A stretch of 64,000 nt of DNA from Thermoanaerobaculia bacterium (GCA_036009105.1 DASYMJ010000043.1:25658-89657); one strand, 5' to 3'; shown: positions 21,846 through 43,146, counted from the stretch's first letter. Made by a program: numbers and translations. Notes: generated by a model not told the origin, from the letters alone.

Positions 21846-24800
21846 ATGGCCGCGCGCCTGGCGCGCCTCACCCCGCAGGAGCGCGCCCGGCTCCTGCGCA
21901 GCGCCGCCGCTCGCGCGACGGCCGTTCCCCGCCGCCCGGCCGGGCAGAACGAGCTGCCGCTCTCGCCCGCGCAGCAGCGGATGTGGTTCCTGGAACAGCT
22001 GCAGCCGGGCGCGTATCACTCCTACGACTTCACGCGCCTCATCGGTCCGGTCGATGTGGCGCGCCTCGACGCCGCCTTCCGGGAGATCGTCCGCCGCCAC
22101 GAGGCGCTGCGCACATCGTTCGTCAGCGTGGACGGCACGCCGCGGCAGCTCGTGCACGATGAGGTGCCGTTCTCCATCGCCTCCGTCACCGTGGAGGATC
22201 CCGAGGGTTTCGCGGACGCGGAGACCCTGCGCCCGTTCGATCTCACCCGGGCGCCTTTGCTGCGCGTGACGCTCGTGAACGGGCAACTGCTGCTGGTCAC
22301 GCTGCATCACATCATCTCGGACGGCTGGTCGCTCGGCGTCCTCGATCAGGAGCTGCGCGCGCTGTACGCCGGTGCGTCGCTGCCGGAGCTGCCGGTGCAG
22401 TTCGGCGACGTCGTGTTGTGGCAGCAGTCGCGGACCGGGGAAGGCGTGGACTGGTGGAAGCAGACGCTGAGCGGCGTTCCCGACGTGCTCGACCTGCCCG
22501 CCGACCACCCGCGGCCGGCCGTGCAATCCTTCCGCGGCGCGCGCGTCACGCACACGGTTTCGCCTTCGCTTCTCGCGGAGCTGAACGAGCTCGCCCAGCG
22601 CGAACACGTCACGCTGTTCATGCTCCTGGTCGCCGCCTTCGACGTGCTGCTCTACCGCCACACCGGCCAGAGCGAGTTCGCCGTCGGGACGCCGGTCGCG
22701 AACCGCACGCCGGAGACCGAGCCGCTGATCGGCCTCTTCATCAACACCATCGCCCTGCGGGCGAACCTGAGCGACGACCCATCGTTCCGCGAGCTGCTCG
22801 GGCGCGTGCGCGAGACGTCCCTCGAAGCGTTCGCCCATCAGGACGTGCCGTTCGACCGTGTGGTCGACGCCCTCGCATTACCGCGCAACGCCAATCGCAC
22901 GCCGCTCTACCAGACCATGATCGTCCTCGGCGCGGGGCAGGGGAGCTACGCGCCGCTGGGCGACATCGAGCGGGTGCCGTATCACCCCCACTCCGCCTCC
23001 GCGCGCTTCGACCTGACGCTGTCGATGGCCATCGACGAGACCGGCCTGGTCTGCCTCTTCGACTACGCGGCCGATCTGTTCGATCCGGCCACCGTCGAGG
23101 CCTTCGCGCGCCGCTACGAGATGCTGCTGCGCGGCGCGGCGGCTGATCCGAATACGGCGGTGTCTCGGCTGCCGCTGATGGATGCCGCCGAGCGCGGTGT
23201 CATCCTGAGCCGCGCGGCCGGCGAAGGATCCGTACCGCTCCTGCGCGATACGACGCTCCACGCACTTTTCCAGGAACAGGCCGCCCGCACGCCCGACACG
23301 CCCGCGGTGAACGACGTGACGTACGGGGAGCTCGACCGCTGGTCGGACGAGATCGCCGCCACCATCGACACCCACCTCGTCCCCTTCCTCGCCGACCGCA
23401 CGCCGGCCGCGATCGCGCAACTGCTCGGCATCCTCAAGGCGGGCGCCGCCTACCTCCCCATCGATCCCGCCACGCCGCGGGAGCGCCTCGACTGGCTCGT
23501 CGCGGACAGCAAGTCGGTGGCGCCGGGCGACAACGCATACGTGATCTACACCTCCGGTTCCACCGGCACGCCGAAAGGCGTCGTGGTCAGCCACCGCTCC
23601 GCGGTCAACCTGACCCTGGCTTTCGCGCAAAGCCATCAGTTTGCAGGTCACCGCCTGCTGATGATCCCGCCGCTGCACTTCGACGCCTCGGTGGGCGACG
23701 TCTTCCCCGCCCTCGCCACCGGCGCGACGCTCATCCTCCATCCGTCGCCCGCCGACCTCGACGCCCGCGCGCTGGCCCGCTTCTGCAACGAGCAGGGCGT
23801 CACCGCCATCGACGCGCCGGCCGCGCTCTGGCGCCGCTGGGCCGCGGAGTGGCAGCCCATCCCCGCGCTGCGCCTGATGATGGTGGGCGGTGAGTCGGTG
23901 CCGGTGGATGAAGTGCGCCGCTTCGCGCGCCTGACGAACAACCAGGTCCGCTTCGTCAACCACTACGGCCCGACCGAAGCGACGGTCTGCGCCACGACCT
24001 ATCACACCGTCGACGCGAGCGAGTGCACCACGACCGAGCTCCCCATCGGCAAGCCGATCGCGAACGTCTCCGCATACGTCCTCGACCAGCACCTCCAGCC
24101 GGTGCCGCGGGGCATCGCGGGCGAGCTGTACATCGGCGGCGCCGGCGTGGCGCGCTATCACGGCCGGGAAGAGTTCCTCCCCAACCCGTTCGGCGAGGGC
24201 CGCCTCTATCGCACCGGCGACCTGGCCCGCCGCCTCGCCTCGGGCGACCTCCTCTTCCTCGGCCGCGCCGACCGGCAGATCAAGCTGCGCGGCTTCCGCA
24301 TCGAGCCGGGGGAGATCGAGGCCGCCATCCTCGCCCACGCCGGCATCCGCGCTGCGATCGTGATCAAGCGCGAGGAGCGGCTCGTCGCCTATGTCGTCGG
24401 CGAGACGGAGCTGCAGTTGCACGACCGCCTGCCGGAGTACATGGTGCCGTCCGCGATCGTGCGCCTCGAGGCGCTCCCGCTGACGAGCAACGGCAAGGTG
24501 GACCTCAACGCGTTGCCCGCTCCCCCCCGCACGACCACCAGTTCCCGCGCGCCCCGCAACGAGACGGAGCGCGAGCTGCTGCGCATCTGGTGCGAGGTGT
24601 TGCAGGCAGACGGCCTCGGCATCGACGACTTCTTCGCGCACGGCGGCGACTCCCTCCGCACCATGCCCCTGGTGTTCAAGGTGCGGGAGCGCTTCGGCGC
24701 CGACCTCCCGCTCAGCTCCGTCTTCCGCGCCCCGACCGTGGCGCGCTTCGCCGCGCTCCTCACGCACGGAGCGCAGGCGGACGATCTGGAATCGAAAATC

Positions 24801-29306: not shown

Positions 29307-29314
29307 GGTACCGT

Positions 29315-29410
29315 GTCATCCTGAGCCGCGGAGACGGCGAAGGATCCGTACCGATCTTGCGCCGCGCCTGAAGGTTCGGATCCTTCGTCCTCTTCGGGAC
29401 TCAGGATGAC
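29315..29410. repeat. Full-length MITE-like hairpin element (GTCATCCTGAG...CGAAGGATCC family)
   Basis: The left end is gtcatcctgagccgcggagacggcgaaggatccgtaccgatcttgcgccgcgcctgaaggttcggatccttcgtcctcttcgggactcaggatgac, with a variable centre. The element is 96 nt, with 26-30 nt terminal inverted repeats. Confidence 0.8.
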
Positions 29411-29414
29411 ACCC

Positions 29415-29735
29415 ATGCCCGTCACCTTCGACACCGTCCGCGAAGTCGCCCTCGCCATGCCGAACGTGGTGGAGGGCACCTCGTACGGCACGCCGGCGCT
29501 GCGGGTGAAGACGAAGTTCCTGGCCCGGCTGCGGGAGGATGGGGACTCCGTCGCGTTCCGGGTCGGGTTCGATGAGCGGGACCTGTTGATGGCGGCGAAG
29601 CCCGACACCTTCTTCATCACCGATCACTACCGCGGCTATCCGGCCGTGTTGCTGCGGCTCTCCCGGGCCACGCGCGAGGATGTGGCGGAGATCGTCCGCC
29701 TGGCCTTCGCGGCGGTGACGGCGAAACGGCGATGA
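29415..29735 (+). CDS. MmcQ/YjbR family DNA-binding protein
   Basis: The motifs TSYGTPALRVKTKFLARL and DHYRGYPAVLLRL are typical of the MmcQ/YjbR family. The alternative ATG at 29406 lies inside the repeat element. Confidence 0.6.
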   Translation: MPVTFDTVREVALAMPNVVEGTSYGTPALRVKTKFLARLREDGDSVAFRVGFDERDLLMAAKPDTFFITDHYRGYPAVLLRLSRATREDVAEIVRLAFAAVTAKRR

Positions 29736-29749
29736 TCGCCGCATGCCGC

Positions 29750-32700
29750 TCAGCCGATGGCCGGCTCCATGTCGCCGACTTCCGCATCCGCCACCGGCTC
29801 GATCCGGCGGTGCGTCTTGGCCACCAGCACGTAGATCGACGGCACGACGAACAGTGTGAACGCCGTTCCGATGATCATGCCGGAGACGAGCATGATGCCG
29901 ATGCTGTTGCGGGCGCCGGCGCCGGGGCCGGCCGCGAAGACGAGCGGCAGGTGGCCCATCACCGTGGCGGCGGTGGTCATCAGAATGGGGCGGAGGCGCG
30001 TGCCGGCCGCCTCGAGCACGGCGGACAGCTTGTCGTGCCCCTCCTCCTGCAGATGGTTGGCGAACTGCACGATGAGGATGCCGTTGCGGGCGATGAGGCC
30101 GACCAGGGTGATGAGTCCGACCTGACTGTAGATGTTGATCGAGGTCAGGCCGAGGAACGAGAAGAGGAGCGAGCCGGAGAGGGCGAGCGGCACCGAGCCG
30201 GCCAGGATGATGAACGGATCGCGGAAGCTCTCGAACTGCGCGGCGAGGACGAGGTAGATGAGGATCGCGGAGAGCAGGAAGACGCCGAGGAAGCGCGCCC
30301 CTTCGGTGCGCAGCTGGCGCGACTCGCCGGCGTAGTCGACGGTGAAGCCGCGGGGGAGCGTCTTCGCCGCCTCGTCTTCCAGGAACTTCAGCGCGGAGTC
30401 GAGGGAGACGCCGGGCGGGATGGCCCCCTGGATGCGCACCGCGTTGAGCTGCTGGAAGCGCTTCAGCTCGCGCGGCTCGGTGGTGGTCTGCAGCGTGGCG
30501 AAGGTGGAGAGCGGCACGAGCTGGCCGTTGCCGCCGGTGATGTAAATCTCCGACAGCTGGTCGGCCGTCAAACGGTCGGCCCGCTTCACGAGCGGGATCA
30601 CCTTGTAGCTGCGTCCCTGGATGCTGAAGCGGTTCACGTAATTGCCGCCTAGCAGCGTGGAAAGATCGCGGCCGGCCTGGGCGAGGTCGACGCCCTGCGC
30701 GCGCAGCTTGTCGCGGTTGAACACCACCCGCGCCTGCGGCTGGTCGAACTTGAGGTCCGTATCGGCGAACATGAACTTGCCGCTCGTCATCGCCTTCTGC
30801 ACCAGGTTGTTGGCCAGCTCCGCCAGCTGGGCCGGCTCGGCGGTGGAGACGATGGCGAAGTCGACCGGGAAGCCCTGGCTGCCCGGCAGCGATGGCGGCA
30901 CGAGCTGGATCACCCGGATGCCCGGGATCTGGGCCGACTTCGCGGAGACGTCCATCAGGATCTGGTTGATGTCGCGGTCGCGCTGCGAATGCGGCTTGAC
31001 CACCATGCCGCCGAAGCCGCCGCCGGGAAAGATGACCTGGAACGAGCCCTCGTGCTCGGGCACGGAGCGGTAGGCGTCGCTCACCTGCCTGGCGAAGAGC
31101 TTGGTCTGGTCGATGGTGGAGTTCGCGGCCCCCTGGATGATCCCGAAAAGGAAGTTCTGGTCCTCGGTGGGGGCGAGCTCCTTCTGCGAGAAGAGGTAGA
31201 GGGGGAAGATGAGCAGCACCACGAACACCCACAGCGTGATGACCACCGGCCGGTAGTTGAGCGTGCGGGAGAGCAGGCGCGTGTAGAGGTGCTGCACGGA
31301 CTCGAAGCGGCGGTTGACCATGCCGGCGAAGCCCTTCTCCGTGTCGCCGGCGCGGAGGAGCTTGGAGCCCATCATCGGGGAGAGCGTCAGGGCGACGACG
31401 CCGGAGATGAACACCGCGCCGGCCAGGGTGAAGGCGAACTCGCGGAAGAGCGAGCCGGTCAGGCCGCCCTGCAGCGCCACCGGCGTGTAGACCGCGGCCA
31501 GGGTGATGGTCATGGCGATGATCGGCGCCACCAGCTCGCGCGCCGCGTCGATGGCCGCCTGGAACGGCGTCTTCCCCATGTGCAGATGCCGCTCGATGTT
31601 CTCCACCATGACGATGGCATCGTCCACCACGAGGCCGACGGAGAGCACGACCGCGAGCAGGGTGAGCAGGTTGATGGTGAAGCCGAAGACGAGCATCAGC
31701 AGCACGGCGCCGATCAGGGAGATGGGGATGGCGATGACCGGGATGATCACGCCGCGCACCGAGCCGAGGAAGAGGAAGATGATCAGGATGACGATGAGCA
31801 GCGTCTCGACGAGCGTCTTGAGCACTTCGTCGATGGCCGACTGGATGTAGGCGGAGGAGTCGTAAGGGACGCCGGTGGTCATGCCGGCGGGGAGCTGGGC
31901 CCGGATCTCCGGCATCGCCTCGCGCACCCGCTTCATCACGTCCAGCGTGTTCGCGGTGGGGAGGGTGAAGATGCCGATGAAGACGGCGGTCTGGCCGTTG
32001 AAGCTCACCTCGCCGTCATACGTCTCGGCGCCGAGGACGACGTCCGCGATGTCGCCCAGGCGGACCAGATCATTGCCCCGCTCCTTGACCACCAGCTGCT
32101 TGAACTCCTCGGCCGTCTCCAGGTTCGTGTTGGCCACGAGGTTGACCGAGGTCATGGAGCCCTTGGTGCGGCCGAGGGCGGAAAGGTAGTTGTTCGCGGC
32201 GAGCGCGTTGCGGACGTCGGTGGGGGAGATCTGGCGGGCAGCCATCCGCTGCGGATCGAGCCACACTCTCATCGCAAACGTCCGGTCGCCGAAGATCTCG
32301 GCGCGCTGCACGCCGGAGATGGCGCTCAGCTTCGGCTGCACCACCCGGGTCAGGTAGTCCGTGATCTGGTTCTGGTCGAGGTCCTTCGAGGCGAAGCCGA
32401 GGTAGGCGGCGGCGAACTGGCTATCCGTCGTCTGCAGATCGATGATCGGCGCCTCGGCCTCGGGCGGCAGCTGGTTGCGCACCTGCGCCACTTTCGACTG
32501 GATCTGCGTCAGCGCGGCGTTCGTGTCGTAGTTGAGCTTGAGGTGGACGGTGATCGTGCTCACGCCCTGGCCGCTGGAGGACTCGAGGAAGTCGATGCCG
32601 TCCGCGCCGGCGATGGCCCGCTCCAGCGGTGCGGTGATGAAGCCGCGCACCAGGTCCGCGTTCGCGCCGACATAGGCCGTGCTGACCACCACGTTGGCCA

Positions 32701-32824
32701 TGTCGCTGCGCGGGAACTGGCGCACCACGAGCGAGCGGATGGACTGCAGCCCGGCGATGAGGATCACCAGGTTGACCACCATCGCCAGGACAGGACGGCG
32801 GATGAAGAGATCTGTGAATTTCAT
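29750..32824 (-). CDS. RND multidrug efflux permease (HAE1/AcrB-MexB family)
   Basis: 1024 aa with 12 TM helices and two large periplasmic loops. The N-terminus MKFTDLFIRRPVLAMVVNLVILIAGL is typical of AcrB. Confidence 0.9.
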   Translation of the reverse strand: MKFTDLFIRRPVLAMVVNLVILIAGLQSIRSLVVRQFPRSDMANVVVSTAYVGANADLVRGFITAPLERAIAGADGIDFLESSSGQGVSTITVHLKLNYDTNAALTQIQSKVAQVRNQLPPEAEAPIIDLQTTDSQFAAAYLGFASKDLDQNQITDYLTRVVQPKLSAISGVQRAEIFGDRTFAMRVWLDPQRMAARQISPTDVRNALAANNYLSALGRTKGSMTSVNLVANTNLETAEEFKQLVVKERGNDLVRLGDIADVVLGAETYDGEVSFNGQTAVFIGIFTLPTANTLDVMKRVREAMPEIRAQLPAGMTTGVPYDSSAYIQSAIDEVLKTLVETLLIVILIIFLFLGSVRGVIIPVIAIPISLIGAVLLMLVFGFTINLLTLLAVVLSVGLVVDDAIVMVENIERHLHMGKTPFQAAIDAARELVAPIIAMTITLAAVYTPVALQGGLTGSLFREFAFTLAGAVFISGVVALTLSPMMGSKLLRAGDTEKGFAGMVNRRFESVQHLYTRLLSRTLNYRPVVITLWVFVVLLIFPLYLFSQKELAPTEDQNFLFGIIQGAANSTIDQTKLFARQVSDAYRSVPEHEGSFQVIFPGGGFGGMVVKPHSQRDRDINQILMDVSAKSAQIPGIRVIQLVPPSLPGSQGFPVDFAIVSTAEPAQLAELANNLVQKAMTSGKFMFADTDLKFDQPQARVVFNRDKLRAQGVDLAQAGRDLSTLLGGNYVNRFSIQGRSYKVIPLVKRADRLTADQLSEIYITGGNGQLVPLSTFATLQTTTEPRELKRFQQLNAVRIQGAIPPGVSLDSALKFLEDEAAKTLPRGFTVDYAGESRQLRTEGARFLGVFLLSAILIYLVLAAQFESFRDPFIILAGSVPLALSGSLLFSFLGLTSINIYSQVGLITLVGLIARNGILIVQFANHLQEEGHDKLSAVLEAAGTRLRPILMTTAATVMGHLPLVFAAGPGAGARNSIGIMLVSGMIIGTAFTLFVVPSIYVLVAKTHRRIEPVADAEVGDMEPAIG

Positions 32825-32836
32825 TGGCTTCTCCGT

Positions 32837-32920
32837 GTCATCCTCAAGTCGCGCAGACGACGAAGGATCTCCCGGCGCTTGCGAGGAGATCCTTCGGCCA
32901 TCTGAGCCGCTCAGGATGAC
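32837..32920. repeat. MITE-like hairpin element (variant GTCATCCTCAAG...) between the RND and MFP genes
   Basis: The element is gtcatcctcaagtcgcgcagacgacgaaggatctcccggcgcttgcgaggagatccttcggccatctgagccgctcaggatgac. The termini are conserved and the centre is divergent. Confidence 0.75.
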
Positions 32921-32921
32921 A

Positions 32922-34043
32922 CTAGCTGTTCTCCGGCTTGGGCGTTGCGCTGTTGGACGGTTGCACGGAGTTGTTGACGATGACGGCCGCGCCGGGGCGG
33001 AGCTTGAACGCGCCGGAGGTGACGACTTCCTCGCCCGGCTTGAGGCCGGTCAGGATGCCGATCTGGTCTCCGCGCGAGCCGCCCAGCTTCACGAACTGCT
33101 GGCGCACGCCGCGGTAGGTCGTCCCCTTCTTCGGGTCCTTCATCTGCTCCACGATGAAGACCGAGTCGCCGAACGGCGCATAGCTGATGGCGGAGGCGGG
33201 GACGACCACGACCGGCGAGGAGCCGCCGCTGGAGAGCTTGGCCTGCACGTACATGCCGGGGCGGAGCTTGCCGGAACGGTTCTCGAAGATGGCCTGCACC
33301 CGGACGTTGCGCGTGGCTTCGTCGATGGCGGACTCGAAGGCGGCGACGCGGCCGTGCTCCGGCGCGCCGAGAGCGTCGGAGACGACTTCGATCTCCGAGC
33401 CGGGGGCGAGCTTGCCGAGGTCGGCCTGGGGGACGGAGAAGTTGACGTAGGCGGGGCGGATGGCCTGCAGGGTGACGATCGGCGCGCCGCCGGCGAGGTA
33501 CTGGCCGAGGTTCACCTGGCGCAGGCCGAGGACGCCGGCGAAGGGGGCGCGGATGGTTTTGCGCTCGATCATCGCCCTGATCTCGCCGACACGCGCGTCG
33601 GCGGACTTGAATTCGGCGCTGGCTTGGTCGAGCGACGACTGGGCGACCACGCCCTGGCCGGCCATCCCCTGGTTGCGCTGCAGGGCGAGGCGGGCCAGCT
33701 CGCGCTGCGCTTCGGCGGCGGCCAGCTGGGCCCGCTCCTGCTTGGTGTCGAGGCGGACCAGGATGTCACCCTTGGAGACGGAGTGGCCGGAGTCGAACGA
33801 GATCTGCTCGATGATGCCGGGCAGGTCGGCGCTGACGGTGACGCCGTTCACCGCGGCGACGGTGCCGATCGCATTCGTCGCGCCGGTCCACGTCTCCTGC
33901 CGGACGATGGTCGTCGTGACGGCTTCCGGGGGCGGCTCCCAGCTCTGGGACATCGCCGTTTTGATCTGGGAGTACTTGAACCAGGCGAGGATGGCGATGA
34001 CGGCGAAGACGACGACGAGCATCAAAAACAAACGCTTTTTCAT
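32922..34043 (-). CDS. RND efflux periplasmic adaptor (membrane fusion protein, AcrA/HlyD family)
   Basis: There is an N-terminal TM helix, a coiled-coil hairpin (ERAQLAAAEAQRELARLALQRNQ) and lipoyl/beta-barrel segments. It lies directly upstream of the RND permease. Confidence 0.9.
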   Translation of the reverse strand: MKKRLFLMLVVVFAVIAILAWFKYSQIKTAMSQSWEPPPEAVTTTIVRQETWTGATNAIGTVAAVNGVTVSADLPGIIEQISFDSGHSVSKGDILVRLDTKQERAQLAAAEAQRELARLALQRNQGMAGQGVVAQSSLDQASAEFKSADARVGEIRAMIERKTIRAPFAGVLGLRQVNLGQYLAGGAPIVTLQAIRPAYVNFSVPQADLGKLAPGSEIEVVSDALGAPEHGRVAAFESAIDEATRNVRVQAIFENRSGKLRPGMYVQAKLSSGGSSPVVVVPASAISYAPFGDSVFIVEQMKDPKKGTTYRGVRQQFVKLGGSRGDQIGILTGLKPGEEVVTSGAFKLRPGAAVIVNNSVQPSNSATPKPENS

Positions 34044-34234
34044 GGCGAGTCAAAAACTCTACAACGTTGAAAGCCGCGGCGCGGTCAAATCCGTGTGAGC
34101 ACGGAGCAGCAGCGCGCGTTGGCGGTTGAAATTCCACGAGCCGTAGAGGCCCGTGATCAGCGGCCGGAACGGCCGCGACGATTCTGGACTGGCGGGTATT
34201 TTAACGCGGCAGGGCGTTACGGGGTGTCACAAAA

Positions 34235-34295
34235 GAACGATGAACGATGAACGAGTTAGGTGCCGGCGTTCGTTCATCCTTCATCGTTCATCGTT
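34235..34295. repeat. Palindrome of GAACGATGAA decamer repeats in the RND operon promoter region
   Basis: The sequence is gaacgatgaacgatgaacga-gttaggtgccggcgtt-cgttcatccttcatcgttcatcgtt. The arms are reverse-complementary. The same repeat word occurs at 689-722. Confidence 0.7.
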
Positions 34296-34703
34296 TCTCA
34301 CATACGGCTCCCCATGAATTTCATCCGAGGGATCCGGCATGTAGATGCGCCACAGGTAGTCCAGGGCGATGGCCAGGCCTTGGCGCTCGCGCATGGTGGC
34401 GATGAGGGGGACGAACAGGAGCAGGAAGAAGCCGGCGCCGAGGCCGAAGTTCGTGGAGCGGAAGCCGAAGTAGAGCAGGCCGATGCCGAGGGCGATGGGG
34501 AGGCGGTCGGTGATGATGATCCACATCCAGATGTCGCCGTAGTTGCGCTGGTACTGGAGGTTGCACACGGGGCAGCGCGCGTGGGCGTGGGTCCACCTGC
34601 GGAAGAGCGGGCCCTGGCCGCAACGCGGGCAGCGGCGGCGGAGGCCGCGCAGCAGGACGGTGGGGATGGGGACGCGCATCGCCGTCGGATTATGCGTCCC
34701 CAC
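34281..34703 (-). CDS. DUF983 family zinc-ribbon membrane protein
   Basis: The Zn-ribbon CPRCGQGPLFRRW...CPVCNL is followed by two TM helices. Confidence 0.6.
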   Translation of the reverse strand: MGTHNPTAMRVPIPTVLLRGLRRRCPRCGQGPLFRRWTHAHARCPVCNLQYQRNYGDIWMWIIITDRLPIALGIGLLYFGFRSTNFGLGAGFFLLLFVPLIATMRERQGLAIALDYLWRIYMPDPSDEIHGEPYVRNDER

Positions 34704-34709
34704 CCCGCG

Positions 34710-34952
34710 TCAATGCTTGTGGTTGCGCACCGCCTGCACGCCGAGGCCGACGGCGGCTCCGACCGCGGCGCCTTTGAGCGGCTGGTGGTGATCGATCAGC
34801 GCGCCGGCGGCGGCGCCGACGAGCGCGCCGCGGGTCTGGCTGTAGTGATGACGATGGCGCTTGTGATGCTTCGTCGCCGCGAAGGCGCCTCCGGTGGGGA
34901 GGAGCAGAGAGAGGGCGAGGATGCTTGCCTGGATGCTTTTCATGCTCTCCAC
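34710..34952 (-). CDS. Glycine-zipper (Gly-zipper_2TM/17-kDa-antigen-like) small secreted protein
   Basis: It has a signal peptide, a His-rich segment and a glycine zipper (GALVGAAAGALIDHH...GAAVGAAVGLGVQA). Confidence 0.55.
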   Translation of the reverse strand: MESMKSIQASILALSLLLPTGGAFAATKHHKRHRHHYSQTRGALVGAAAGALIDHHQPLKGAAVGAAVGLGVQAVRNHKH

Positions 34953-34983
34953 AATTGCGAAGCGCGTGCCGGATATAAACCCT

Positions 34984-35775
34984 TTATCTCAAGGCATTTA
35001 GCGCCGCTTCGTGGAGGGCTCCATTGGTCGAGACGGCGCTCCGTCCGTCGTACCGCGCGTTGCCGCCGAGGTCGGTGAAACGGCCGCCTGCCTCCTCCAC
35101 GATCAGCTGCACGGCGGCCACGTCCCACGGCGCGACTTCCGGCTCCACGGCGACGTCCATCGCCCCTTCCGCAACCAGCATGTGCGCCCAGAAATCGCCG
35201 AAGCCGCGGGTGCGGCCGCAGGCGCGGGCCAGGGCGAGGAAGCGGTCCGCCAGGCCGGCCTTGTCAAAGTCGGCGATGCCGTCGTAGGCCAGCTGCGCTT
35301 CGGCCAGCGTCTTGACCGAGGAGACGCGGAGGCGCGCGCCGTTGCAGAACGCGCCTTGCCCCCGCACGGCAAACCAGCGGCGGGCCAGCGCGGGCGCGGA
35401 GACGACGCCGACCTGCAGCGCATCATCAACCGCCAAGGCGATGAGCGTGGCGAAGACGGGGATGCCGCGGATGTAGTTCCTGGTGGCGTCGATGGGATCG
35501 ATGATCCATTTGCGGGCTCCCCTCACCCCGCCCTCCGGGCCACCCTCTCCCCGCCCGGGGGGAGAGGGTTCTTCGGACCCGAGCTCTTCGCCGATCACCG
35601 CGTCGCCCGCCGGCAGGCGCGAGCGCAGCAGGCGCTCCACCGCCTCATCCACCTCGGAGACCGGCGTCTGGTCCGCCTTCGTCCGCACCGCGAGCGACGG
35701 CGAGCGGAAATGCCTCAGCGTCAGCTCGTCCGCGGCGTCGGCCAGCGCCAGCGCCAGCTCCAGATCGGGCGTCAC
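34984..35775 (-). CDS. Inositol monophosphatase family protein (IMPase/SuhB/HisN-like)
   Basis: The motif WIIDPIDATRNYIRGIPVFATLIAL (WxIDPIDGT-like) is present, with DEAVERLL upstream and GGRFTDLGG at the C-terminus. Start is placed at GTG 35775, overlapping the M28 peptidase stop (GTGA). The track ORF over-extends upstream. Confidence 0.8.
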   Translation of the reverse strand: MTPDLELALALADAADELTLRHFRSPSLAVRTKADQTPVSEVDEAVERLLRSRLPAGDAVIGEELGSEEPSPPGRGEGGPEGGVRGARKWIIDPIDATRNYIRGIPVFATLIALAVDDALQVGVVSAPALARRWFAVRGQGAFCNGARLRVSSVKTLAEAQLAYDGIADFDKAGLADRFLALARACGRTRGFGDFWAHMLVAEGAMDVAVEPEVAPWDVAAVQLIVEEAGGRFTDLGGNARYDGRSAVSTNGALHEAALNALR

Positions 35776-37707
35776 GGCTGGACGAGCTTGAGATTGGCCA
35801 GCAGCTTGATGGCCCGGTTCACCCACCCCTCGTCGATCGGATCGCCCGTCTCGCCCGCCACCAGATCGGCGATCTCGCGCGGCGTGCGCCGGCCGTCCAT
35901 GAAGTTGACCGTCTCGTAGAGGGCCAGGTCGAAGTCGCCCAGGGCCGCCTTCTGCGCGTCGATCCACGTGCGGTCATCGCCGGTCTGCTCGCCGAACAGC
36001 TCGTCGAAGATGGGGAGCATGGTCAGGCGGCGCGGTCCCTTGCCCGCCGCGGCCGGAGCGGCGGCAGGTTTGGCGGTCCAGGAGAAGATGCCTTTGTTGG
36101 AGAGCGTCGCATTGGGCAGCGCCGCGGCGTTCGCCGCGAGCCGCTTCTGCACGTCCGCCGCGGCGCGCGTGTTGCCGGCCAGGCGCAGGCGCGCGAGCAG
36201 CTCGCCGTCCGCGCGGAGGCGCTCGGTGGCCACCAGCGGGGCGAGCCGCTGCCACTCGCCCTGGTCCGCGTTGGCCAGCCAGTAGATGACGTTCGCCGCG
36301 AGGGCGCCGACGCGCTTGAGCTCCGTCGCATCCGACTTGTCCGGACGGTCCTCGCTGGTGTGATGCGTCCAGTCCGGGTCGTGGCCGAACATGGTGGACG
36401 GCACGCCGATGCCGAGGAACATGTCGTGGTCGCTGCCCTGCGCGTAGGGCGTCACCGCGGAGTGCCAGTACTGATGCGTGCCGGTCGGCGCGTAGAGCTT
36501 CGCCTCGCGCGCCTGGTCCAGCGCGTCCGGCAGCAGCGCGTCGAGGAAGGAGGGGACGGAGAGCGGCGCGCGCGTCATGTAGAAGCGGCTGCCGGTCTTC
36601 TGCAGGTCTTCCCCGATCATGTCCAGGTTGACGTTCGCGATCACGCAGCGATCGGTGCCGGGAGGCGTGGGGCGGGGATCGTCGAAAGGCGCGCAGGCCC
36701 GCTCCTCCGGATGCCGGGTCAGGTAGGCCATGGTGCCGAAGTACTCCGGCACCCACATGAAGTGGATGGTGCGGCGCGGGTTGGGGATCGCGCCGGACTT
36801 GATGAGCGCGGTCAGCGTGCGCAGCACCTCCAGCATCGCGGCGGAGCCGCTGGCGTTGTCGTTCGCGCTCCACTGGGGATGGTCGAGGTGAGCCGTGACG
36901 ATGATCTCGTCCGGGCTCTCCGAGCCGCGGATGTAGCCGTGGGTCACGACCAGCCGGCCGTTGCCGAGGTCCGCGTCGATGTTGCCGCGCACGCGGACGG
37001 CTCCTTTGGCCATGCGCAGCTTCAGCATCTCGTACTGGCTCTGGGAGATCTGGAACGAGCCGCTGGTCTTCTCCACTTCATTGACCCGGGTCCAGAGGCC
37101 GTTGTAGCGGACCATGTCCGGATGCTCGTTGCGGTCGCCGGGCGGCGGGTAGATCACGGCGCCGACCGCGCCGTACTTTTGCACGCCCATGCGGACCACG
37201 TCGCGCGCGTAGCCATAGGCGAGGACCACTTTGCCTTTCAGGTCGCGGCCGGTGTAGTCGCCATCGCTGGTCCCTTTGCCGACGTCGACCAGCTCGCCGC
37301 TCCACTGGCCGCCTTTGGAGTAGGTGGAGACGCACATCGGCGTGTCGCTGAAGCGGCACAGCCGCACCGGCTCGTCCCCTTCCACCCACAGCTCGCCGGA
37401 ATTGATGTTCCAGCCCATGGGGCCGACCCAGGTCTGGTACTTGATGCGGCCGTCGGTGTTGAAGAACTCCATGTCGCCGTTCATGCCGGTGATGCGCACG
37501 CCGTCCAGGACGATCTTGAGGGCGACCTCGACCATGTCCGGCCCGGCCTGGATGCGGTGGAACTCGGAGATGCGCCGCTCCTGGGCCAGGGCGCGCTCGC
37601 CGGAGTACTCCGCGGCGATCTTGTCGAAGGTCTGCTGGTTGATGATGTGCGGGGCGGCGTTGGCGGTGACGGCAAAAAACATGAGGAGGGGGAGGAAACG
37701 CTTCATA
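35772..37707 (-). CDS. M28 family zinc aminopeptidase with PA domain, secreted
   Basis: The signal peptide is MKRFLPLLMFFAVTANA. M28 metal-ligand regions are HLDHPQWSANDNASGSAAMLEVL, EYFG and HTSEDRPD. The track ORF start at 37991 over-extends. Confidence 0.8.
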
Positions 37708-37795
37708 GAGGCGGAGCGTAGCACGTGTGTTGGCCGGCGGCGGGCCGCTGCTCCACGCCCGCTGCCCGCCGAAAAGTGCCCTATCATCCCCGACC

Positions 37796-39235
37796 GTGTT
37801 TGCATCACTTCTCCTCGCACTCCTGGTGAGCGCGCCACCGGATCTGAAATGGGGCGGTGACTCGGAGGGGGGCGCTCCGTTCGTGGAGGCCGACCCGAAC
37901 GATCCGGCCGTCGTGCGCGGCTTCGACGTGGAGGTGGCGGAGGAGATCGCGAAGGGCCTCGGCCGCAGGCCGCATTTCGTGCAGGTGGCATTCACGGCCA
38001 TCGATCAGTCGGTGGCGCGCGGCGATTTCGACATCGGGATGAGCGGCGTGGAGGACACCCCGCCCCGCCGCGCGGCCATGGCGGCGACCATTCCGTACTT
38101 CGAGTTCCACGAGGTGCTCACCACGCGCGCGGCCGACCGCGGCCGCTTCCGCACCCTGGACGACCTCCGCGGCCACCGCGTCGGCACCCTCGGCGGCACG
38201 ATCGCTTACGACCGCCTGCTCGAGGCGCAGAAGGACGGCGTGGTGCTCGTCTCGTATGACGATGACGTGCACCCCTACGAGGACCTGGCCCAGGGCCGCC
38301 TCGATGCCGTGCTCCTCGACAACATCATCGCCGCCCGCTCCATGCGCCGCGTGCCCGGCCTCTTCATGCAGCCCAAGCCGGTGATGACCGGCCACTACGT
38401 CGCCGTGCTGGCCAGGGAGAACGGCGCCTTGCGCGATCAGGTGGACGCCATCCTGCGCGCGCGGATGCGCGACGGGACGCTGGAGCGGATCTATCGCAAG
38501 TGGCAGATCTGGGATGAGTACCAGCCCCGCTTTTTCGCCTCTGTGCTCGCGCCGCCCAAAAACGTAGGGCCGGCTCTCCAGCCGGCCCCTCGCGTCGACA
38601 AGACGCAGCTCACGCTGGCCTACATCCCCGCCCTCCTCCGCGCGTCGGTCATCACCATCGTCCTCTCCTGCCTCGCCATGGCGCTGGCCATCCTGGTCGG
38701 CGTCCTCATCGCCAGCGGCCGGGTCTACGGCGGCACGCTGCTGCGCGGCGTGCTCGCCACCTACGTGGAAATCGTGCGCGGCACGCCGGTGCTGCTGCAG
38801 CTCTTCGTTTTGTATTACGGCCTCTCCGCCGTCATCCGCCTCCCCGCCTTCATCGCCGCCCTTCTCGGCCTCGGCCTGAACTACGCCGCGTACGAGAGCG
38901 AGATCTATCGCGGCGCGCTGGAGGCGGTCTCGCGCGGCCAGCTCGAGGCGGCGCGCACGCTCGGCCTCACCGAGTCGCAGGTCTTCCGCCTGGTGCGCGG
39001 GCCGCAGGCGTTCCGCCTCGCTCTCGCGCCGATGACGAACGACTTCGTGGCGCTGCTCAAGGACTCCTCGCTCGTGTCGGTGATCACCGTTGTCGAGCTG
39101 ACCAAGCAGACGCAGATCTTCGCCGCGAACATCGGCAGCTGGGTGGTGCCCGGCATCCTCTGCGCGGCGCTCTATCTGTTGATGTCGTTGCCGCTCTCGC
39201 GCGTTGCGCGGCGGCTGGAGGAGCGGTGGCGATGA
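37796..39235 (+). CDS. Amino-acid ABC transporter, fused periplasmic substrate-binding and permease protein (PAAT family)
   Basis: The N-terminal SBP domain has VAFTAIDQSVARGDFDIGMSGV. The C-terminal His/Gln-type permease has the EAA-like loop GLNYAAYESEIYRGALEAVSRGQLEAARTLGL. The junction NVGPALQPAP is encoded by a GGGCCGGCTCTCCAGCCGGCCC hairpin unit. Start is placed at GTG 37796 (signal-like VFASLLLALLVSA); the track start at 37727 lies 20 nt from the divergent M28 start. Confidence 0.75.
   Translation: MFASLLLALLVSAPPDLKWGGDSEGGAPFVEADPNDPAVVRGFDVEVAEEIAKGLGRRPHFVQVAFTAIDQSVARGDFDIGMSGVEDTPPRRAAMAATIPYFEFHEVLTTRAADRGRFRTLDDLRGHRVGTLGGTIAYDRLLEAQKDGVVLVSYDDDVHPYEDLAQGRLDAVLLDNIIAARSMRRVPGLFMQPKPVMTGHYVAVLARENGALRDQVDAILRARMRDGTLERIYRKWQIWDEYQPRFFASVLAPPKNVGPALQPAPRVDKTQLTLAYIPALLRASVITIVLSCLAMALAILVGVLIASGRVYGGTLLRGVLATYVEIVRGTPVLLQLFVLYYGLSAVIRLPAFIAALLGLGLNYAAYESEIYRGALEAVSRGQLEAARTLGLTESQVFRLVRGPQAFRLALAPMTNDFVALLKDSSLVSVITVVELTKQTQIFAANIGSWVVPGILCAALYLLMSLPLSRVARRLEERWR
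38564..38589. repeat. Single GGGCCGGCTCTCCAGCCGGCCC hairpin unit inside the ABC SBP-permease coding sequence
   Basis: The sequence gtagggccggctctccagccggcccc is read in frame as VGPALQPAP at the SBP/permease domain boundary. Confidence 0.65.
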
Positions 39236-39981
39236 GCGTCCTCGCCATCAACGGCCTGCGCCTGAACCGCGGCCCGGTCGAGGTGCTGCGCGGGGTGAAC
39301 CTGAGCGTCGAGCGGGGCGAGCTGGTCGCGCTGATGGGCCTCTCCGGCGGCGGCAAGACGACCATCCTGCGCACCATCGCCGCGCTGGAGCCGTTCGACG
39401 CCGGCACGGTGGAGGTCGACGGCGTGACGCTCCGCCCCGGGCCGCTGCCCGCGCGCGGCGTCCTGCGCGAGCTTCGCCGCCGCGTCGGCATGGTCTTCCA
39501 GCTGCACTACCTGTTCGAGCACCTCACCGCGCTGCAGAACGTGACCCTCGCGCCGCTGCACGTCGCTCGCGCCGCGCACGCCGAGGCCGGCCGCCGCGCG
39601 CTCACCCTCCTCGAATCCCTCGGCGTGGCCCATCGCCGGGATGCCTATCCCCGCGAGCTCTCCGGCGGCGAAGCGCAGCGCGTGGCCATCGCCCGGGCCA
39701 TGGCCATGGACCCGCCGCTGCTCCTGATGGACGAGCCGACCGCCTCGCTCGATCCGGCGCGGCGCGGAGAGCTGGGCCGTACGCTCCAGCAGCTCACCTC
39801 CGGCGACCGCACCCTCATCGTCACCACCCACGACGACGACTTTGCCCGCGACTTCGCCACCCGGGTGATCATCCTCGCCGAGGGCGAGGTGGTGGAGGAA
39901 GGGCTGCCCAACGAGGTGCTGGTCAACCCGCAGCATCCGGCCACGCGCCGCCTGCTCCAACACGAACAAGTGTCATCCTGA
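39232..39981 (+). CDS. Amino-acid ABC transporter ATP-binding protein (GlnQ/HisP-like)
   Basis: Walker A is GLSGGGKTT, the signature is LSGGEAQRVAIARA, and Walker B is LLLMDEPTASLD. The ATG overlaps the permease stop. The stop codon lies inside the next MITE-like element. Confidence 0.9.
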   Translation: MSVLAINGLRLNRGPVEVLRGVNLSVERGELVALMGLSGGGKTTILRTIAALEPFDAGTVEVDGVTLRPGPLPARGVLRELRRRVGMVFQLHYLFEHLTALQNVTLAPLHVARAAHAEAGRRALTLLESLGVAHRRDAYPRELSGGEAQRVAIARAMAMDPPLLLMDEPTASLDPARRGELGRTLQQLTSGDRTLIVTTHDDDFARDFATRVIILAEGEVVEEGLPNEVLVNPQHPATRRLLQHEQVSS

Positions 39982-40068
39982 GGAGCGCAGACGCCGAAGG
40001 ATCCGTAGCGATTTCGCGCCGCGCCTGAAGGTGCGGATCCTTCGCCTCTGCGGGGCTCAGGATGGCAC
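39972..40068. repeat. Full-length MITE-like hairpin element (GTCATCCTGAG...CGAAGGATCC family)
   Basis: The element is gtcatcctgaggagcgcagacgccgaaggatccgtagcgatttcgcgccgcgcctgaaggtgcggatccttcgcctctgcggggctcaggatggcac. The centre is nearly identical to the copy at 29315-29410. Confidence 0.8.
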
Positions 40069-40081
40069 TACACTGCGCGGA

Positions 40082-41941
40082 ATGCTTGCTCTCCTCCTCG
40101 CCGCCACCCTCACCGTCGATGACTACGTCACGATGCCCAATCCTTCCACGCCGCGCCTCGCGCCGGACGGCAAGCACGTCGCGTACGTCCTGACCCGCGC
40201 GGACATGACGCGCGGCGTGTACGACTCGGATGTCTGGCTCGTCGACGCGGACGGCGGGCACGACACGCAGCTCACCCGCAGCCCGGGGGCGGATAACACG
40301 CCGAAGTGGTCGCCGGACGGCTCCACGCTCGCCTTCCTCTCCGACCGCGACGGCCGCACCGCCATCTGGACCCTCGACCTGGGAGGCGGCGAGCCGCGCA
40401 AGCTCAGCGCCGACTCCACCGGCGTGCGCGACTTCGAGTGGTCGCCGGACGGCAAGCGCATCGCGTTCGTCATGCCCGATCCCGCGCCGCCGGAGGACAA
40501 GGACGCGCCGCACGTGGCGGGCGCACCGCCGCGGCAGTCGCACCTTTACGTCGCTGATGTGGCCACCCGCGCCACGCGAAAAGTGACCGGCGGCGCCTTC
40601 ACCGTCACGCACATGTCCTGGTCTCCGGACGGCGCGCGCATCGCCATCGACAAGCTGCCCGGCTTCGGCCTGGACGACTACTACCGGGCCGATCTGGCCA
40701 TCGTGAACCTGGAGGACGGCGCCATGACGCCGCTCGTCACCCGGCCCGGCCTCGACGCGACACCGCGCTGGTCGCCGGACGGCCGGTCCATCGTCTTCAT
40801 CAGCCAGGGCGGCATCTCCGACTGGCTGGTCGAGCAGCGCCTGTACGTGGTGCCCGCGGCGGGCGGCGAGCCGCGCATCGCGCCGGGCGAGTACGACCGC
40901 ACGCCGGACGACTACGGCTGGATGGGCGACCGCCTCTGGATCAACGGCCCCTGGAGGACGACGACGCAACTGTTCCCCATCTCGCATGTGGAGGGCTCCC
41001 TCACCGACGCCGACGTGCGCGGCAACACCGCGGCCTTCATCTACCAGACCGTCACCACGCCGCCCGAAGTCTTCGTCGCCGACGTGGAGCACTTCGCGCC
41101 GCGCCAGCTCACCCACCACAACGACGAGCTCCGCACCCGCACCCTCGGCGAGACGCGCCTCATCAAATGGAAAAATCCGAAGGACGGACTGGAGATCGAA
41201 GGGCTGCTGACGTTGCCGGTCGGCTACAAGGCGGGAACGAGAGTGCCGCTGCTCACCTTCGTCCATGGCGGCCCCTCCTCCCGCTTCGACCAGGGCTTCC
41301 TCGGCTACCTCGGCCACATCTACGCGCCGCAGGTGCTCGCCGCGAACGGCTTCGCCGTGCTCCGCCCCAACCCGCGCGGCACGGGCGGCTACGGCCCCGC
41401 CTTCCGCGCCGCGAACCGCAACGACTGGGGCGGCATGGACTGGCTGGACATCGACGCCGGCATCGACGAAGCGATCCGCCTCGGCATCGCCGACGCCGAT
41501 CGCCTGGGCCTGATGGGCTGGAGCTACGGCGGCTTCATCGCCTCTTCATCCATCAGCAAGACGGACCGCTTCAAGGCCATCAGCATCGGCGCGCCGGTGG
41601 TCGACCTGCTCTCGTTCCACGGCACCACCGACATCCGCGACTTCATCCCCAGCTACTTCCGCGATCTGCCGCCGGAGCTGCTGCTGGAGCGCAGCCCGCT
41701 GTGGCACCTGCGCAAGATCTCCGCGCCGGTGCTGATCCAGCACGGCGAGGCGGACGAGCGGGTGCCGACCTCGCAAGGGATCATGCTCTACCGCCGCCTG
41801 CAGGAACTGGGCGTCGAGGTGACGCTGGTGACGTATCCGCGCACGCCGCACGTGCCGCGCGAGCCGCGCCTGCGCCTCGACATCGCGAAGCGCAACGTCG
41901 CGTTTTTCTCGCGGCTGCTCGTGAATAAAACGCAAATGTGA
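40082..41941 (+). CDS. S9 family serine peptidase (prolyl oligopeptidase/acylaminoacyl-peptidase-like) with N-terminal beta-propeller
   Basis: WSPDG repeats mark a TolB-like propeller. The C-terminal alpha/beta hydrolase has GWSYGGF (GxSxG) and a downstream Asp/His. The track ORF start at 40031 lies inside the repeat. Confidence 0.85.
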   Translation: MLALLLAATLTVDDYVTMPNPSTPRLAPDGKHVAYVLTRADMTRGVYDSDVWLVDADGGHDTQLTRSPGADNTPKWSPDGSTLAFLSDRDGRTAIWTLDLGGGEPRKLSADSTGVRDFEWSPDGKRIAFVMPDPAPPEDKDAPHVAGAPPRQSHLYVADVATRATRKVTGGAFTVTHMSWSPDGARIAIDKLPGFGLDDYYRADLAIVNLEDGAMTPLVTRPGLDATPRWSPDGRSIVFISQGGISDWLVEQRLYVVPAAGGEPRIAPGEYDRTPDDYGWMGDRLWINGPWRTTTQLFPISHVEGSLTDADVRGNTAAFIYQTVTTPPEVFVADVEHFAPRQLTHHNDELRTRTLGETRLIKWKNPKDGLEIEGLLTLPVGYKAGTRVPLLTFVHGGPSSRFDQGFLGYLGHIYAPQVLAANGFAVLRPNPRGTGGYGPAFRAANRNDWGGMDWLDIDAGIDEAIRLGIADADRLGLMGWSYGGFIASSSISKTDRFKAISIGAPVVDLLSFHGTTDIRDFIPSYFRDLPPELLLERSPLWHLRKISAPVLIQHGEADERVPTSQGIMLYRRLQELGVEVTLVTYPRTPHVPREPRLRLDIAKRNVAFFSRLLVNKTQM

Positions 41942-41998
41942 CCTGCGTCACGATTCGGGGTGAAGCGCACCGCTGAGGCTGGCCGTCAGGTGACGTAA

Positions 41999-42286
41999 AT
42001 GCACCTCAGCCAGGAAGAGATCGAGCGGTATGCCTCCCGCCATGCGTCGGTGGACGAGCTGCTGGCCACGGCTGAGCATCTGGACGACTGCTTCGACTGC
42101 CGCGACCGCGCCGCCGCCCTGATCGATTCGGGCAAAGGCGAGCCGTCTCACACGCGCAAGGTCATCGCCCCCCCGCCTCCCGCCCGCCCCCGGCCGCGCA
42201 TCGGGCGGTGGCTGCTGCCGTGGCTCTTCGCGCTGGCCGCCATCGGGCTGGCCATCTGGCTGGCCACCTCGGCCATGCAGCGCTGA
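41999..42286 (+). CDS. zf-HC2-like membrane-anchored protein (putative anti-sigma factor)
   Basis: HLSQEEIERYASRHA...HLDDCFDCRDR matches the H-x3-C-x2-C pattern. There is a Pro-rich linker and a C-terminal TM helix. No sigma factor gene is adjacent. Confidence 0.4.
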   Translation: MHLSQEEIERYASRHASVDELLATAEHLDDCFDCRDRAAALIDSGKGEPSHTRKVIAPPPPARPRPRIGRWLLPWLFALAAIGLAIWLATSAMQR

Positions 42287-42287
42287 T

Positions 42288-43052
42288 CTATCGCTTCACG
42301 AAGAGCGCGACGGTCATCACCAGGCCGATCGTCACCACCGCCCAGCGCACGAACCCGCGGCCGAGCCTTCGCGCGATCCGGGCGCCGAGGTAGCCGCCCA
42401 GGATTGCGGCGACGGCCATGATCGCGGCGTCGCGCCAGAGCACCGCGCCGGAGATGGCGAAGCAGATCGCGGCCACGCCGTTGACGCACGTGGCCAGCAG
42501 GTTCTTCAGGCCGTTCATCTGGTGCATGTCGGTCAGGCCAATGAGGCCGAGGGCGGCCAGCATGAGGATGCCCTGGCCGGCGCCGAAGTAGCCGCCGTAG
42601 ATCGCCACGAGCAGCTGGAAGGTGAAGGCGAAGATCACCCAGCCGCGCGCCGGGCGTTCGTTCGCGGAGGCGAAGGAGCGGAACCAGCGCGAGATCACCT
42701 CCTGCGCGGCGAGGAGCAGCGTGGCGGCGAGGATCAGCCACGGCACGATGCGGGTGAAGAGCTTCTCCGGCGTGTGCAGCAGGAGCAGCGCGCCGATGAT
42801 GCCGCCGATCACGGCGGGGATGGTCAGGAGCAGCAGCCAGCGGGGCAGGCCGGCCAGCTCGCGGCGGAAGCCGATCGCGCCGGCCAGCGAGCCGGGCCAG
42901 AGCGCGACGGAGTTCGTCGCGTTCGCCGCGATCGGGTTGCGGCCGATCCAGAGCAGGGCCGGGAAGGAGAGCAGCGTCCCGCCGCCGGCGATGGAGTTGA
43001 TGATGCCCGCCACGAGGGTGGCGATGGAGATGATGGCGATTTCCCGTGTCAT
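42288..43052 (-). CDS. TauE/SafE family sulfite/anion exporter (DUF81)
   Basis: 254 aa with 7-8 TM helices and duplicated GGG-rich motifs (IAGGGTLLSFPALL; GGYFGAGQGILMLAAL). The ATG lies inside the terminal CTCAGGATGAC of the adjacent repeat element. Confidence 0.85.
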   Translation of the reverse strand: MTREIAIISIATLVAGIINSIAGGGTLLSFPALLWIGRNPIAANATNSVALWPGSLAGAIGFRRELAGLPRWLLLLTIPAVIGGIIGALLLLHTPEKLFTRIVPWLILAATLLLAAQEVISRWFRSFASANERPARGWVIFAFTFQLLVAIYGGYFGAGQGILMLAALGLIGLTDMHQMNGLKNLLATCVNGVAAICFAISGAVLWRDAAIMAVAAILGGYLGARIARRLGRGFVRWAVVTIGLVMTVALFVKR

Positions 43053-43144
43053 CCTGAGTCCCGCGGAGGACGAACGATCCGTACCTTCAGGCGCCGCGCG
43101 GGATCGGTACGGATCCTTCGCCGTCCGCGCGGCTCAGGACGACA
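43048..43144. repeat. Full-length MITE-like hairpin element, centre in opposite orientation to the copies at 29315 and 39972
   Basis: The element is gtcatcctgagtcccgcggaggacgaacgatccgtaccttcaggcgccgcgcgggatcggtacggatccttcgccgtccgcgcggctcaggacgac. Its centre is approximately the reverse complement of the 29315-copy centre. Confidence 0.8.
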
Positions 43145-43146
43145 GG

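Follow-up and report, generated by a model that had tools for sequence, protein, structure and literature searches.

The 64,000-nucleotide stretch of DNA analysed here, from a Thermoanaerobaculia bacterium (GCA_036009105.1 DASYMJ010000043.1:25658-89657; "the window" below means this whole stretch), carries six copies of a palindromic repeat, four of them wedged between genes and two lying within the modules of a nonribosomal peptide synthetase (NRPS), and it raises the question of what kind of element this repeat is. A first-pass annotation, which described the family accurately and whose six copies were all found where it placed them, had taken them for miniature inverted-repeat transposable elements (MITEs). 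We conclude instead that the elements are probably head-to-head (HH) dimers, with their tags outward, of a REP (repetitive extragenic palindromic)-like unit that belongs to the CGTC/TGTC-tagged superfamily and is of the same kind as the SRM/NTS hairpins of Ssn-type nucleases; judged by its sequence, the family is thus a known kind of element in an undescribed and very widespread variant with a tandem G·A in its stem. This conclusion is carried by two observations, namely that the conserved unit is the hairpin of a single arm and not the long hairpin of the whole element, and that in other genomes such arms bracket, as arm-gene-arm, the gene for a small single-domain GIY-YIG protein of ~95 aa.

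The six copies are as follows, with arm strands in brackets and, for the full elements, the neighbouring genes:

29313..29412, full element 1, HH dimer: left arm 29314-29346 (+), spacer 29347-29378, right arm 29379-29411 (-); upstream FAD monooxygenase, stop at 29306; downstream YjbR, start at 29415 (or 29406)
32835..32922, full element 2, HH dimer: degenerate left arm 32836-32869 (+), 18-nt spacer, right arm 32888-32921 (-); neighbours both on the minus strand, upstream RND membrane-fusion protein (MFP), whose stop codon TAG takes its G (32922) from the element; downstream RND pump, start at 32824
39970..40068, full element 3, HH dimer: left arm 39971-40003 (+), spacer 40004-40035, right arm 40036-40067 (-, tag GCC); upstream ABC ATPase, stop TGA at 39979-81 within the left arm; downstream S9 peptidase, ATG at 40082
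43046..43146, full element 4, HH dimer: left arm 43047-43079 (+), spacer 43080-43111, right arm 43112-43144 (-); upstream Ser/Thr kinase, stop at 43147-49; downstream TauE, ATG at 43052-43050 (minus) in the arm head
20356..20443, in-frame dimer in NRPS module 2: short-form left arm 20356-20381, spacer, right arm 20411-20443
23197..23247 (+), truncated copy in NRPS module 3: one arm, 23198-23230, and 17 nt of spacer

The inverted ends reported in the first-pass annotation are present, but their dimensions had to be revised: in place of ~26-nt terminal repeats around a centre of 25-35 nt, the window elements have arms of 33-34 nt and spacers of 18-32 nt, and the palindrome begins at GTGTC, 1-2 bases outside the ends assigned to the full copies. 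The half copy it had placed at 23199-23250 exists, with the different extent listed above.

The conserved unit is the hairpin of a single arm

The repeats are confirmed as a real, dispersed family, far above chance. Allowing at most one mismatch, GTCATCCTGAG occurs 12 times in the window, as against 1.24 ± 1.21 times in dinucleotide shuffles, none of which (0/100) reached 12, and a profile of the window arms recovered exactly 11 arms with E-values of 2e-6 to 3e-12 and nothing else credible in the window. The copies are also closely related to one another: the spacers of elements 1 and 3 are 89% alike and that of element 4 is their reverse complement, bearing out the earlier view that the elements lie in either orientation; the right arm of the module 2 dimer and the left arm of element 1 are 100% identical across 34 nt, and the truncated copy is 92% identical over 50 nt to a family copy. 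Since the region 26750-35824 is 100% identical to an independent soil-metagenome contig of JGI (Ga0372944_0000130), the elements are not an artefact of assembly. A weak profile match at 53807 was rejected as coding sequence for an AsnB-like (asparagine-synthase-type) motif, VILSGEGADELFGGY; the stretch that encodes it, GTGATCCTGAGCGGCGAAGG at 53804-53829, happens to look like the beginning of an arm and might give rise to spurious matches when patterns are searched for.

The same motif is found far beyond this bacterium. We scanned 185,579 species genomes for GTCATCCTGAG-N(4-16)-CGAAGGATC and obtained at least 120 loci (motif-selected loci), which among the matches listed represent at least 15 bacterial phyla, including Acidobacteriota, Chloroflexota, Bacillota, Bacteroidota, Patescibacteria, Omnitrophota, Planctomycetota, Verrucomicrobiota, Pseudomonadota, Bdellovibrionota, Gemmatimonadota, Nitrospirota, Cyanobacteriota and Fibrobacterota; at least 120 further motif-bearing loci came from viral contigs in IMG/VR, and in all, more than 240 unrelated public contigs carry the motif. 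There was no blastn match in GenBank phages or PLSDB plasmids. The arm sequence is not in the supplementary files of the study that defined the CGTC-tagged repeats (PMC3733652). In a search of 8 million full texts by sequence, GTCATCCTGAG matched unrelated primers only, and 14-17-mers and peptide strings gave no match or one unrelated match. Rfam 15 gave no match at gathering scores and, at E<=5, chance-level miRNA-like matches only (E 0.45-4). The repeat is presumably also a source of spurious open reading frames (ORFs) of the VILSEAKDL / LRMT type in annotation.

On its tagged strand the arm reads TGTCATCCTGAGCGAAGCGAAGGATCT (arm type GAGCCGCGRAGACGGCGAAGG), and the consensus is 5'-Y-GTC | AT-NNN | GA | distal stem-loop | GA | N'N'N'-AT | C-3', that is, a stem of 5 bp followed by a tandem G·A and a distal stem of 2-7 bp. 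The unit would thus be a strand-specific hairpin with two G·A mismatches, predicted from the sequence to be of the sheared type, and usually a GNA triloop. Across loci the loops are mostly such GNA triloops; in the window copies they are 6 nt long, the distal stem-loop having the form GCCG-CGRAGA-CGGC, which recurs in Thermoanaerobaculia metagenome-assembled genomes (MAGs) at loci L013, L036, L057, L107 and L110 and so gives a faint indication of where the window comes from. Both d(GCGNAGC) mini-hairpins, with their GNA loops, and Py-GA-Pu tandem mismatches have known extra stability.

Compensatory changes were found within each arm and not between arms. The basal triplets (CCT/AGG, TCT/AGA, CCC/GGG, TCC/GGA, GCT/AGC, TTC/GAA and GTT/AAC) are always compensated inside the arm, and the distal stem is variable in length and covaries (examples being GC-GNA-GC, GCCCC-GAA-GGGGC and GCAC-GCA-GTGC). 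In an alignment of 66 distinct short arms, 96.8% of cells were paired, dropping to 17-49% in slid controls; cells with a double change numbered 54, against 12.0 ± 2.8 in shuffles (0/500 reaching the observed value), and five of the seven pairs covaried. Dimers point in the same direction. Among pairs of arms, HH dimers predominate (114, with 23 tail-to-tail and 14 head-to-tail; median spacer 23 nt), and in 62 of the 114 one arm is of the CCT and the other of the TCT type, their distal stems often being unrelated, so that the mismatch falls in the long hairpin and not in the arm hairpins. Many arms also occur singly.

The unpaired bases at the foot of the stem are conserved as well. In 139 arms that were defined by their internal palindrome and constrained by no search pattern, GTC precedes the palindrome in 132 and C follows it in 132, the full tag being TGTC in 105 and CGTC in 18; in a tally of arms, GTC is preceded by T 195 times, by C 56 times, by G 10 times and by A 4 times. 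Within the window the tag is TGTC in 9/11 arms (the exceptions being GCC in the right arm of element 3 and GTCG in that of element 4), the stem opens with AT...AT in 10/11, and the left arm of element 2 is degenerate (CCTCAAG); in the cross-phylum sets the A-T/T-A stem opening was partly imposed by the search patterns.

Small GIY-YIG nuclease genes bracketed by arms

In Neisseria, the nuclease SsnA binds and cuts the NTS repeat (CGTCATTCCCGCGMAVGCGGGAATCYRG) only when it is single-stranded DNA (ssDNA), and on just one of the two strands; SsnA is a single-domain GIY-YIG protein of 94 aa, its catalytic residues being Y6, Y17 and E64, and NTS copies bracket its own gene (PMC11893778). The enzyme cuts a few bases upstream, with the three bases before the NTS palindrome governing cleavage and the C after the palindrome governing binding; it is inactive on double-stranded DNA, does not bind RNA, and lowers the integration of transforming DNA that bears NTS (PMC11893778). 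The family of the Ssn nucleases is CDD cd10448 (GIY-YIG_unchar_3), and among genomes with more than 200 SRMs the nuclease was present in 81% (PMC11893778).

The first-pass annotation had suggested a search for an autonomous partner, a transposase gene between matching ends. A gene-carrying unit does exist in other genomes, but what it encodes is a GIY-YIG nuclease and not a DDE or other known transposase. Small GIY-YIG ORFs adjoin arms in five of the 120 motif-selected loci, from Hymenobacter glaciei (L087), a gammaproteobacterial MAG (L105), Omnitrophota (L106) and an alphaproteobacterial MAG (L084), together with L009. The proteins of the four named hosts match PF01541 at 4e-7 to 5e-18 in Pfam; L009 holds a degraded copy that has no Pfam match and was recognized by tblastn and by A3, a profile of the associated GIY-YIG proteins. 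The genes of L105 and L106 each occupy the spacer between the two arms of an HH pair. When ORFs of at least 100 aa near the 120 motif-selected loci were grouped, the recurrent families were housekeeping ones apart from a four-locus cluster formed by the GIY-YIG gene, and no transposase recurred.

Homologues were also picked by protein similarity alone, the A3 profile supplying 12 from viral contigs. Arms flank the gene in 17/17 of these loci (5/5 genomic and 12/12 on viral contigs). Among the genomic cases are Thermodesulfovibrio hydrogeniphilus, a genome with two tandem copies, and a phage-like or integrative element, and at an Omnitrophota locus (L330) the order is CCT-arm, gene, TCT-arm, the same heterodimer as in the widespread gene-less dimers. 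The 12 viral loci all have YGTCAT-type arms, and in one of them, L342, the gene is flanked by canonical Neisseria NTS and its product matches the A3 profile at 3e-28. The associated proteins are single-domain and 93-97 aa long, with the layout Y6, Y17-19 and E64-66; the nearest solved structures, weakly, are UPF0213 proteins.

Two of these arrangements deserve separate mention. In L324-L327 (JGI and Logan contigs, P0204), arm-GIY-YIG-arm has a D5-type primase/helicase gene on one side and a large serine recombinase on the other, which places it within a phage-like or integrative element found in 19 contigs. At L328/L329 (GCA_017880035.1, 1040631-1046690), two identical GIY-YIG genes stand 2.8 kb apart, each surrounded by GTCATTGCGAG...CGAAGCAATC arms and fragments of arms in dense arrays.

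Insertion sites in the window and in related genomes

The dimers are insertions, as comparison with homologous loci showed. As had been claimed, the full copies sit at gene boundaries: each takes up the whole of a very short gap between two co-directional genes (4/4), whose identities were confirmed by Pfam. The claims about borrowed codons were borne out too, with the ABC ATPase stop in the left arm of element 3, the TauE ATG in the GGATGAC end of element 4, and an alternative ATG for YjbR (named MmcQ earlier) at 29406, the JGI gene call beginning at 29415. Arm ends hold Shine-Dalgarno-like AGGA sequences as well as ATG.

The presence/absence polymorphism that had been proposed as a check is found at the junction occupied by element 2. 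In many of 80 metagenomic relatives of the RND pump, which are 74-86% identical to it, the MFP|RND junction is bare, reading TAGATG or TGATG, and in L122, L125, L126, L129, L132, L134 and L136 quite different palindromes lie ~100-200 nt upstream of the pump start. With the junction empty or otherwise filled in relatives, it is a recurrent landing site, and element 2 is specific to its lineage. At least four other palindromic repeat families were seen at the orthologous junction (for example GCGGATGGCGG..., GTTGCTGAGTTGCTGGG..., GGAAGGATGAAGGATGAAGG... and GAGTGCGGTGGCCATGCCACCGC...), which looks like a hot spot for hairpin insertions. The closest relative, L122 (86% identity), has an element of the present family just after the pump gene instead; there was no precise empty site for it, the downstream region not being common to the other relatives. 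On the YjbR/FAD-monooxygenase side there was no synteny in relatives, and hence no empty-site comparison for element 1 was possible.

Within the NRPS genes, the module 2 dimer lies in frame in the loop that joins adenylation motifs A2 and A3, where it is read as CHPEGSEGSPGSGGARAGRSFAVSAAQDD and adds roughly 20-29 residues that most homologues do not have. In module 3 the native C-A linker (ERGVILSRAAGEGSVPLL) has given way, nearly residue for residue, to the truncated copy, the net gain over homologues being one residue.

Several further features of these sites were recorded. The NRPS region (14534-25886) reads as three successive single-module ORFs in three frames (14534-18502, 18217-21834 and 20883-25886); the A2-A3 spacing of module 3 is unusually short, and this module has no WNxT linker motif where the truncated repeat lies. 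The A2-A3 loop appears tolerant of insertions generally: a Longimicrobiaceae NRPS fragment (P0013) has a repeat-like insert, PHPPAPSPTRGEGEHDDAADEGALSHSRTFALSHS, in the same loop (alignment columns about 370-400), and module 1 carries there, in frame, a dimer of a second and unrelated family (ENVGAGFSRPGRAEARPHVDD). The latter family consists of GTAG/GTGG-tagged REPs (GGGCCGGCT-NNN-AGCCGGCCC) in tags-outward dimers, found in the window at 1865-1923, 54569-54636 and also 17063-17112. A third hairpin, at 34228-34295 (minus) upstream of the MFP gene, is made of GATGAAC/GATGAAGG heptamer-like repeats and resembles the junction element of L129; it gave a chance-level Rfam match to mir-241 (E 0.45).

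Origin of the repeats and their place among known hairpin systems

Given these data, we propose that the genome of the host, probably a soil acidobacterium, holds the gene for a cognate Ssn-like nuclease outside the window, and that the gene-less dimers would be internal-deletion derivatives of arm-ssn-arm units that spread into very short operon junctions and permissive protein loops, donating stop and start codons and placing strong hairpins in polycistronic transcripts as by-products. By analogy with Neisseria SsnA, the tagged strand would be bound as ssDNA and cut a few bases 5' of the tag, and the system may serve to restrict or pattern incoming or replicative ssDNA. A bolder version, which we put forward tentatively and consider doubtful as it stands, is that the gene-less dimers are non-autonomous progeny of a mobile arm-ssn-arm unit, that the ~95-aa GIY-YIG nuclease drives the copying of the hairpin, and that the variant has in this way crossed at least 15 phyla and phages with its 25-nt core nearly unchanged; if true, nuclease-driven copying would be the GIY-YIG counterpart of RAYT/REPIN, with no transposase of a known class.

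Several results weigh against assigning the elements to the Ssn-type hairpins. The A3 profile found no GIY-YIG/Ssn homologue within the 64-kb window, so that cleavage of the window elements is inferred, and none in the 1.1 Mb of motif-bearing viral contigs (120 loci); there was likewise none in the loci of the 80 relatives. The nearest-neighbour folding energies of single arms are unremarkable (z -0.4 to -1.6). The CGTC-tagged families described so far have uninterrupted 8-9-bp stems with 4-5-nt loops (PMC3733652), whereas the window-type stem is interrupted by the tandem G·A and has a variable distal stem. Lastly, the published SRM pattern, HGTCWYN(0-2)YYVSBRHN(0-5)WNVSBRGN(0-2)RNCYNB, matches NTS but no short or long arm and has no match in the window. 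That degenerate pattern is an operational search pattern and not a mechanistic criterion, and because the arms fail it, the subfamily would not have been counted in the published census (PMC11893778).

What, then, of the alternatives? A classical MITE, in which a DDE-type insertion sequence has been shortened by deletion and is mobilized by cut-and-paste at its terminal inverted repeats (TIRs), would account for dispersed copies of 85-100 bp with inverted ends in either orientation and for the insertion polymorphism, and to that extent, as in the existence of a gene-carrying partner, the first-pass reading stands. It would also leave target-site duplications, but the check proposed for them came out negative, no direct repeat flanking any of the four full copies; each supposed TIR folds on itself with internal covariation and occurs alone as well, and near the 120 motif-selected loci no transposase recurs, the sole recurrent bracketed gene being that of the GIY-YIG nuclease. 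We consider a classical MITE highly improbable. Mobilization in trans, on ssDNA hairpins, of REP doublets by a domesticated IS200-like Y1 (HUH; PF01797) transposase, as in REPIN/RAYT systems, follows the same logic as the present elements (a REP hairpin with an unpaired 5' tag, in intergenic inverted doublets with a spacer; PMC3733652), and the separate GTAG/GTGG-tagged family shows such repeats to be present in the window. The tag here, however, is YGTC and not GTAG, no transposase was found linked to CGTC repeats (PMC3733652), and the motif is near-identical across phyla, unlike the lineage-specific populations of REPINs. Moreover, tblastn with IS200 and YafM queries detected no credible Y1 gene in ~2.7 Mb of loci, and we regard this explanation as quite improbable. 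The weak Y1 matches obtained in that search were AAA ATPase, MFS and PIN proteins.

A primary function at the RNA level, with selection acting on the transcript and the elements serving as intercistronic mRNA stabilizers, attenuators or processing sites, has more in its favor. All four full elements lie between co-directional genes and must be transcribed; they fold as RNA into very stable hairpins of 88-101 nt (z -6 to -9.4, 4/4), and element 1, the sole one also folded as DNA, gave a z of about -8; single arms in lower-GC loci share the strand of the local gene in 71 cases against 25, by a crude ORF-based call; and many REPs have been argued to act as RNA (PMC3733652). The first-pass annotation had itself held that a covariation-supported RNA structure would speak against mobile DNA, and the arm does covary. 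Yet there is no Rfam match even at E<=5, the same units occur within coding sequence and in phage-like contigs, and a bias of strand is equally expected for an ssDNA signal on the lagging-strand template. What is conserved is the arm with its unpaired GTC and C, the positions that SsnA, which has no RNA binding, needs on ssDNA (PMC11893778), and the arm is best read as an ssDNA hairpin and not as a structured RNA gene. We thus think a primary RNA function unlikely; a coexisting side effect at the RNA level, from a strong hairpin set between formerly coupled cistrons, is plausible. Chance similarity or an artefact of assembly, for which nothing speaks except the high G+C of the window, can be given next to no weight against 12 matches where 1.24 are expected, arm E-values down to 3e-12, a region that is 100% identical in an independent JGI contig, and a motif present in more than 240 unrelated public contigs.

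If the elements are, as we favor, HH dimers of an Ssn-type hairpin, a common repeat would now be assigned to a system with a known enzyme, the published SRM census would be missing a whole subfamily, and Ssn-type motifs would extend to Bacillota, Patescibacteria, Chloroflexota, Acidobacteriota and phage-like contigs. The tandem-G·A design with its variable distal stem suggests that an Ssn-like enzyme may read the base of the stem, the GTC and the C, a rule that matters if such nucleases are to be used as programmable cutters of ssDNA. Gene-carrying and gene-less dimers with the same CCT/TCT arms make the multiplication of CGTC-type repeats directly testable, and operon junctions and the NRPS loop are documented as places where several unrelated hairpin families have landed repeatedly.

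It remains to set the family beside the systems that it resembles. In REPIN-RAYT, inverted REP doublets are reportedly the copied unit (Bertels and Rainey are said to have described this in 2011), and the present family shares with that system the inverted doublets, a single-copy enzyme gene flanked by repeats, and an ssDNA hairpin with a 5' tag; it differs in its YGTC tag, in an enzyme that is GIY-YIG and not HUH/Y1, and in a motif that crosses phyla. Rickettsia palindromic elements, reportedly found within protein-coding genes by Ogata and colleagues in 2000, are similar in their in-frame insertion into permissive surface segments of otherwise intact proteins; here the sites are an NRPS adenylation-domain loop and a C-A linker, and one copy replaces native sequence. 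Likenesses to hammerheads, k-turns, C/D boxes, attC sites, the RP4 nic site (ATCCTG) and CsrA sites were rejected, the matching bases being ones that covary or the required extra elements being missing.

The CGTC-tagged REPs are closer. Their unpaired 5' tag is CGTC, often TGTC, or CCTC, their stems start with A-T and T-A and are followed by a short tail, and they form mainly HH dimers, tail-to-tail ones being rare and head-to-tail ones negligible; intragenic copies and stop codons supplied by repeat ends are on record, no transposase was found linked to them, and the group, reported in five phyla, includes Neisseria dRS3 and Rickettsia RPE-4/RPE-6 (PMC3733652). The present arms agree with them in the CGTC/TGTC tag, the A-T/T-A stem opening, the short unpaired tail starting from C, the predominance of HH dimers with spacers of 20-100 bp, the frequency of heterodimers, the in-frame intragenic copies, the stop codons taken from repeat ends, and the lack of a linked transposase.

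Like the SRM/NTS hairpins, the family has an oriented hairpin headed by HGTCWY, a C directly following the palindrome and hundreds of dispersed copies, as well as, seen here only outside the window, the arrangement arm-gene-arm around a single-domain GIY-YIG protein of ~94-97 aa with the same catalytic layout. It departs from them in the tandem G·A that interrupts the stem and in the variable distal stem with GNA loops, a variant that we know here from sequence alone, and in being common in Bacillota, Patescibacteria, Chloroflexota, Acidobacteriota and viral contigs. Because its arms bracket GIY-YIG genes, and because one of the loci so found is a canonical NTS locus, the family belongs with the CGTC-tagged REPs and the Ssn-related motifs.

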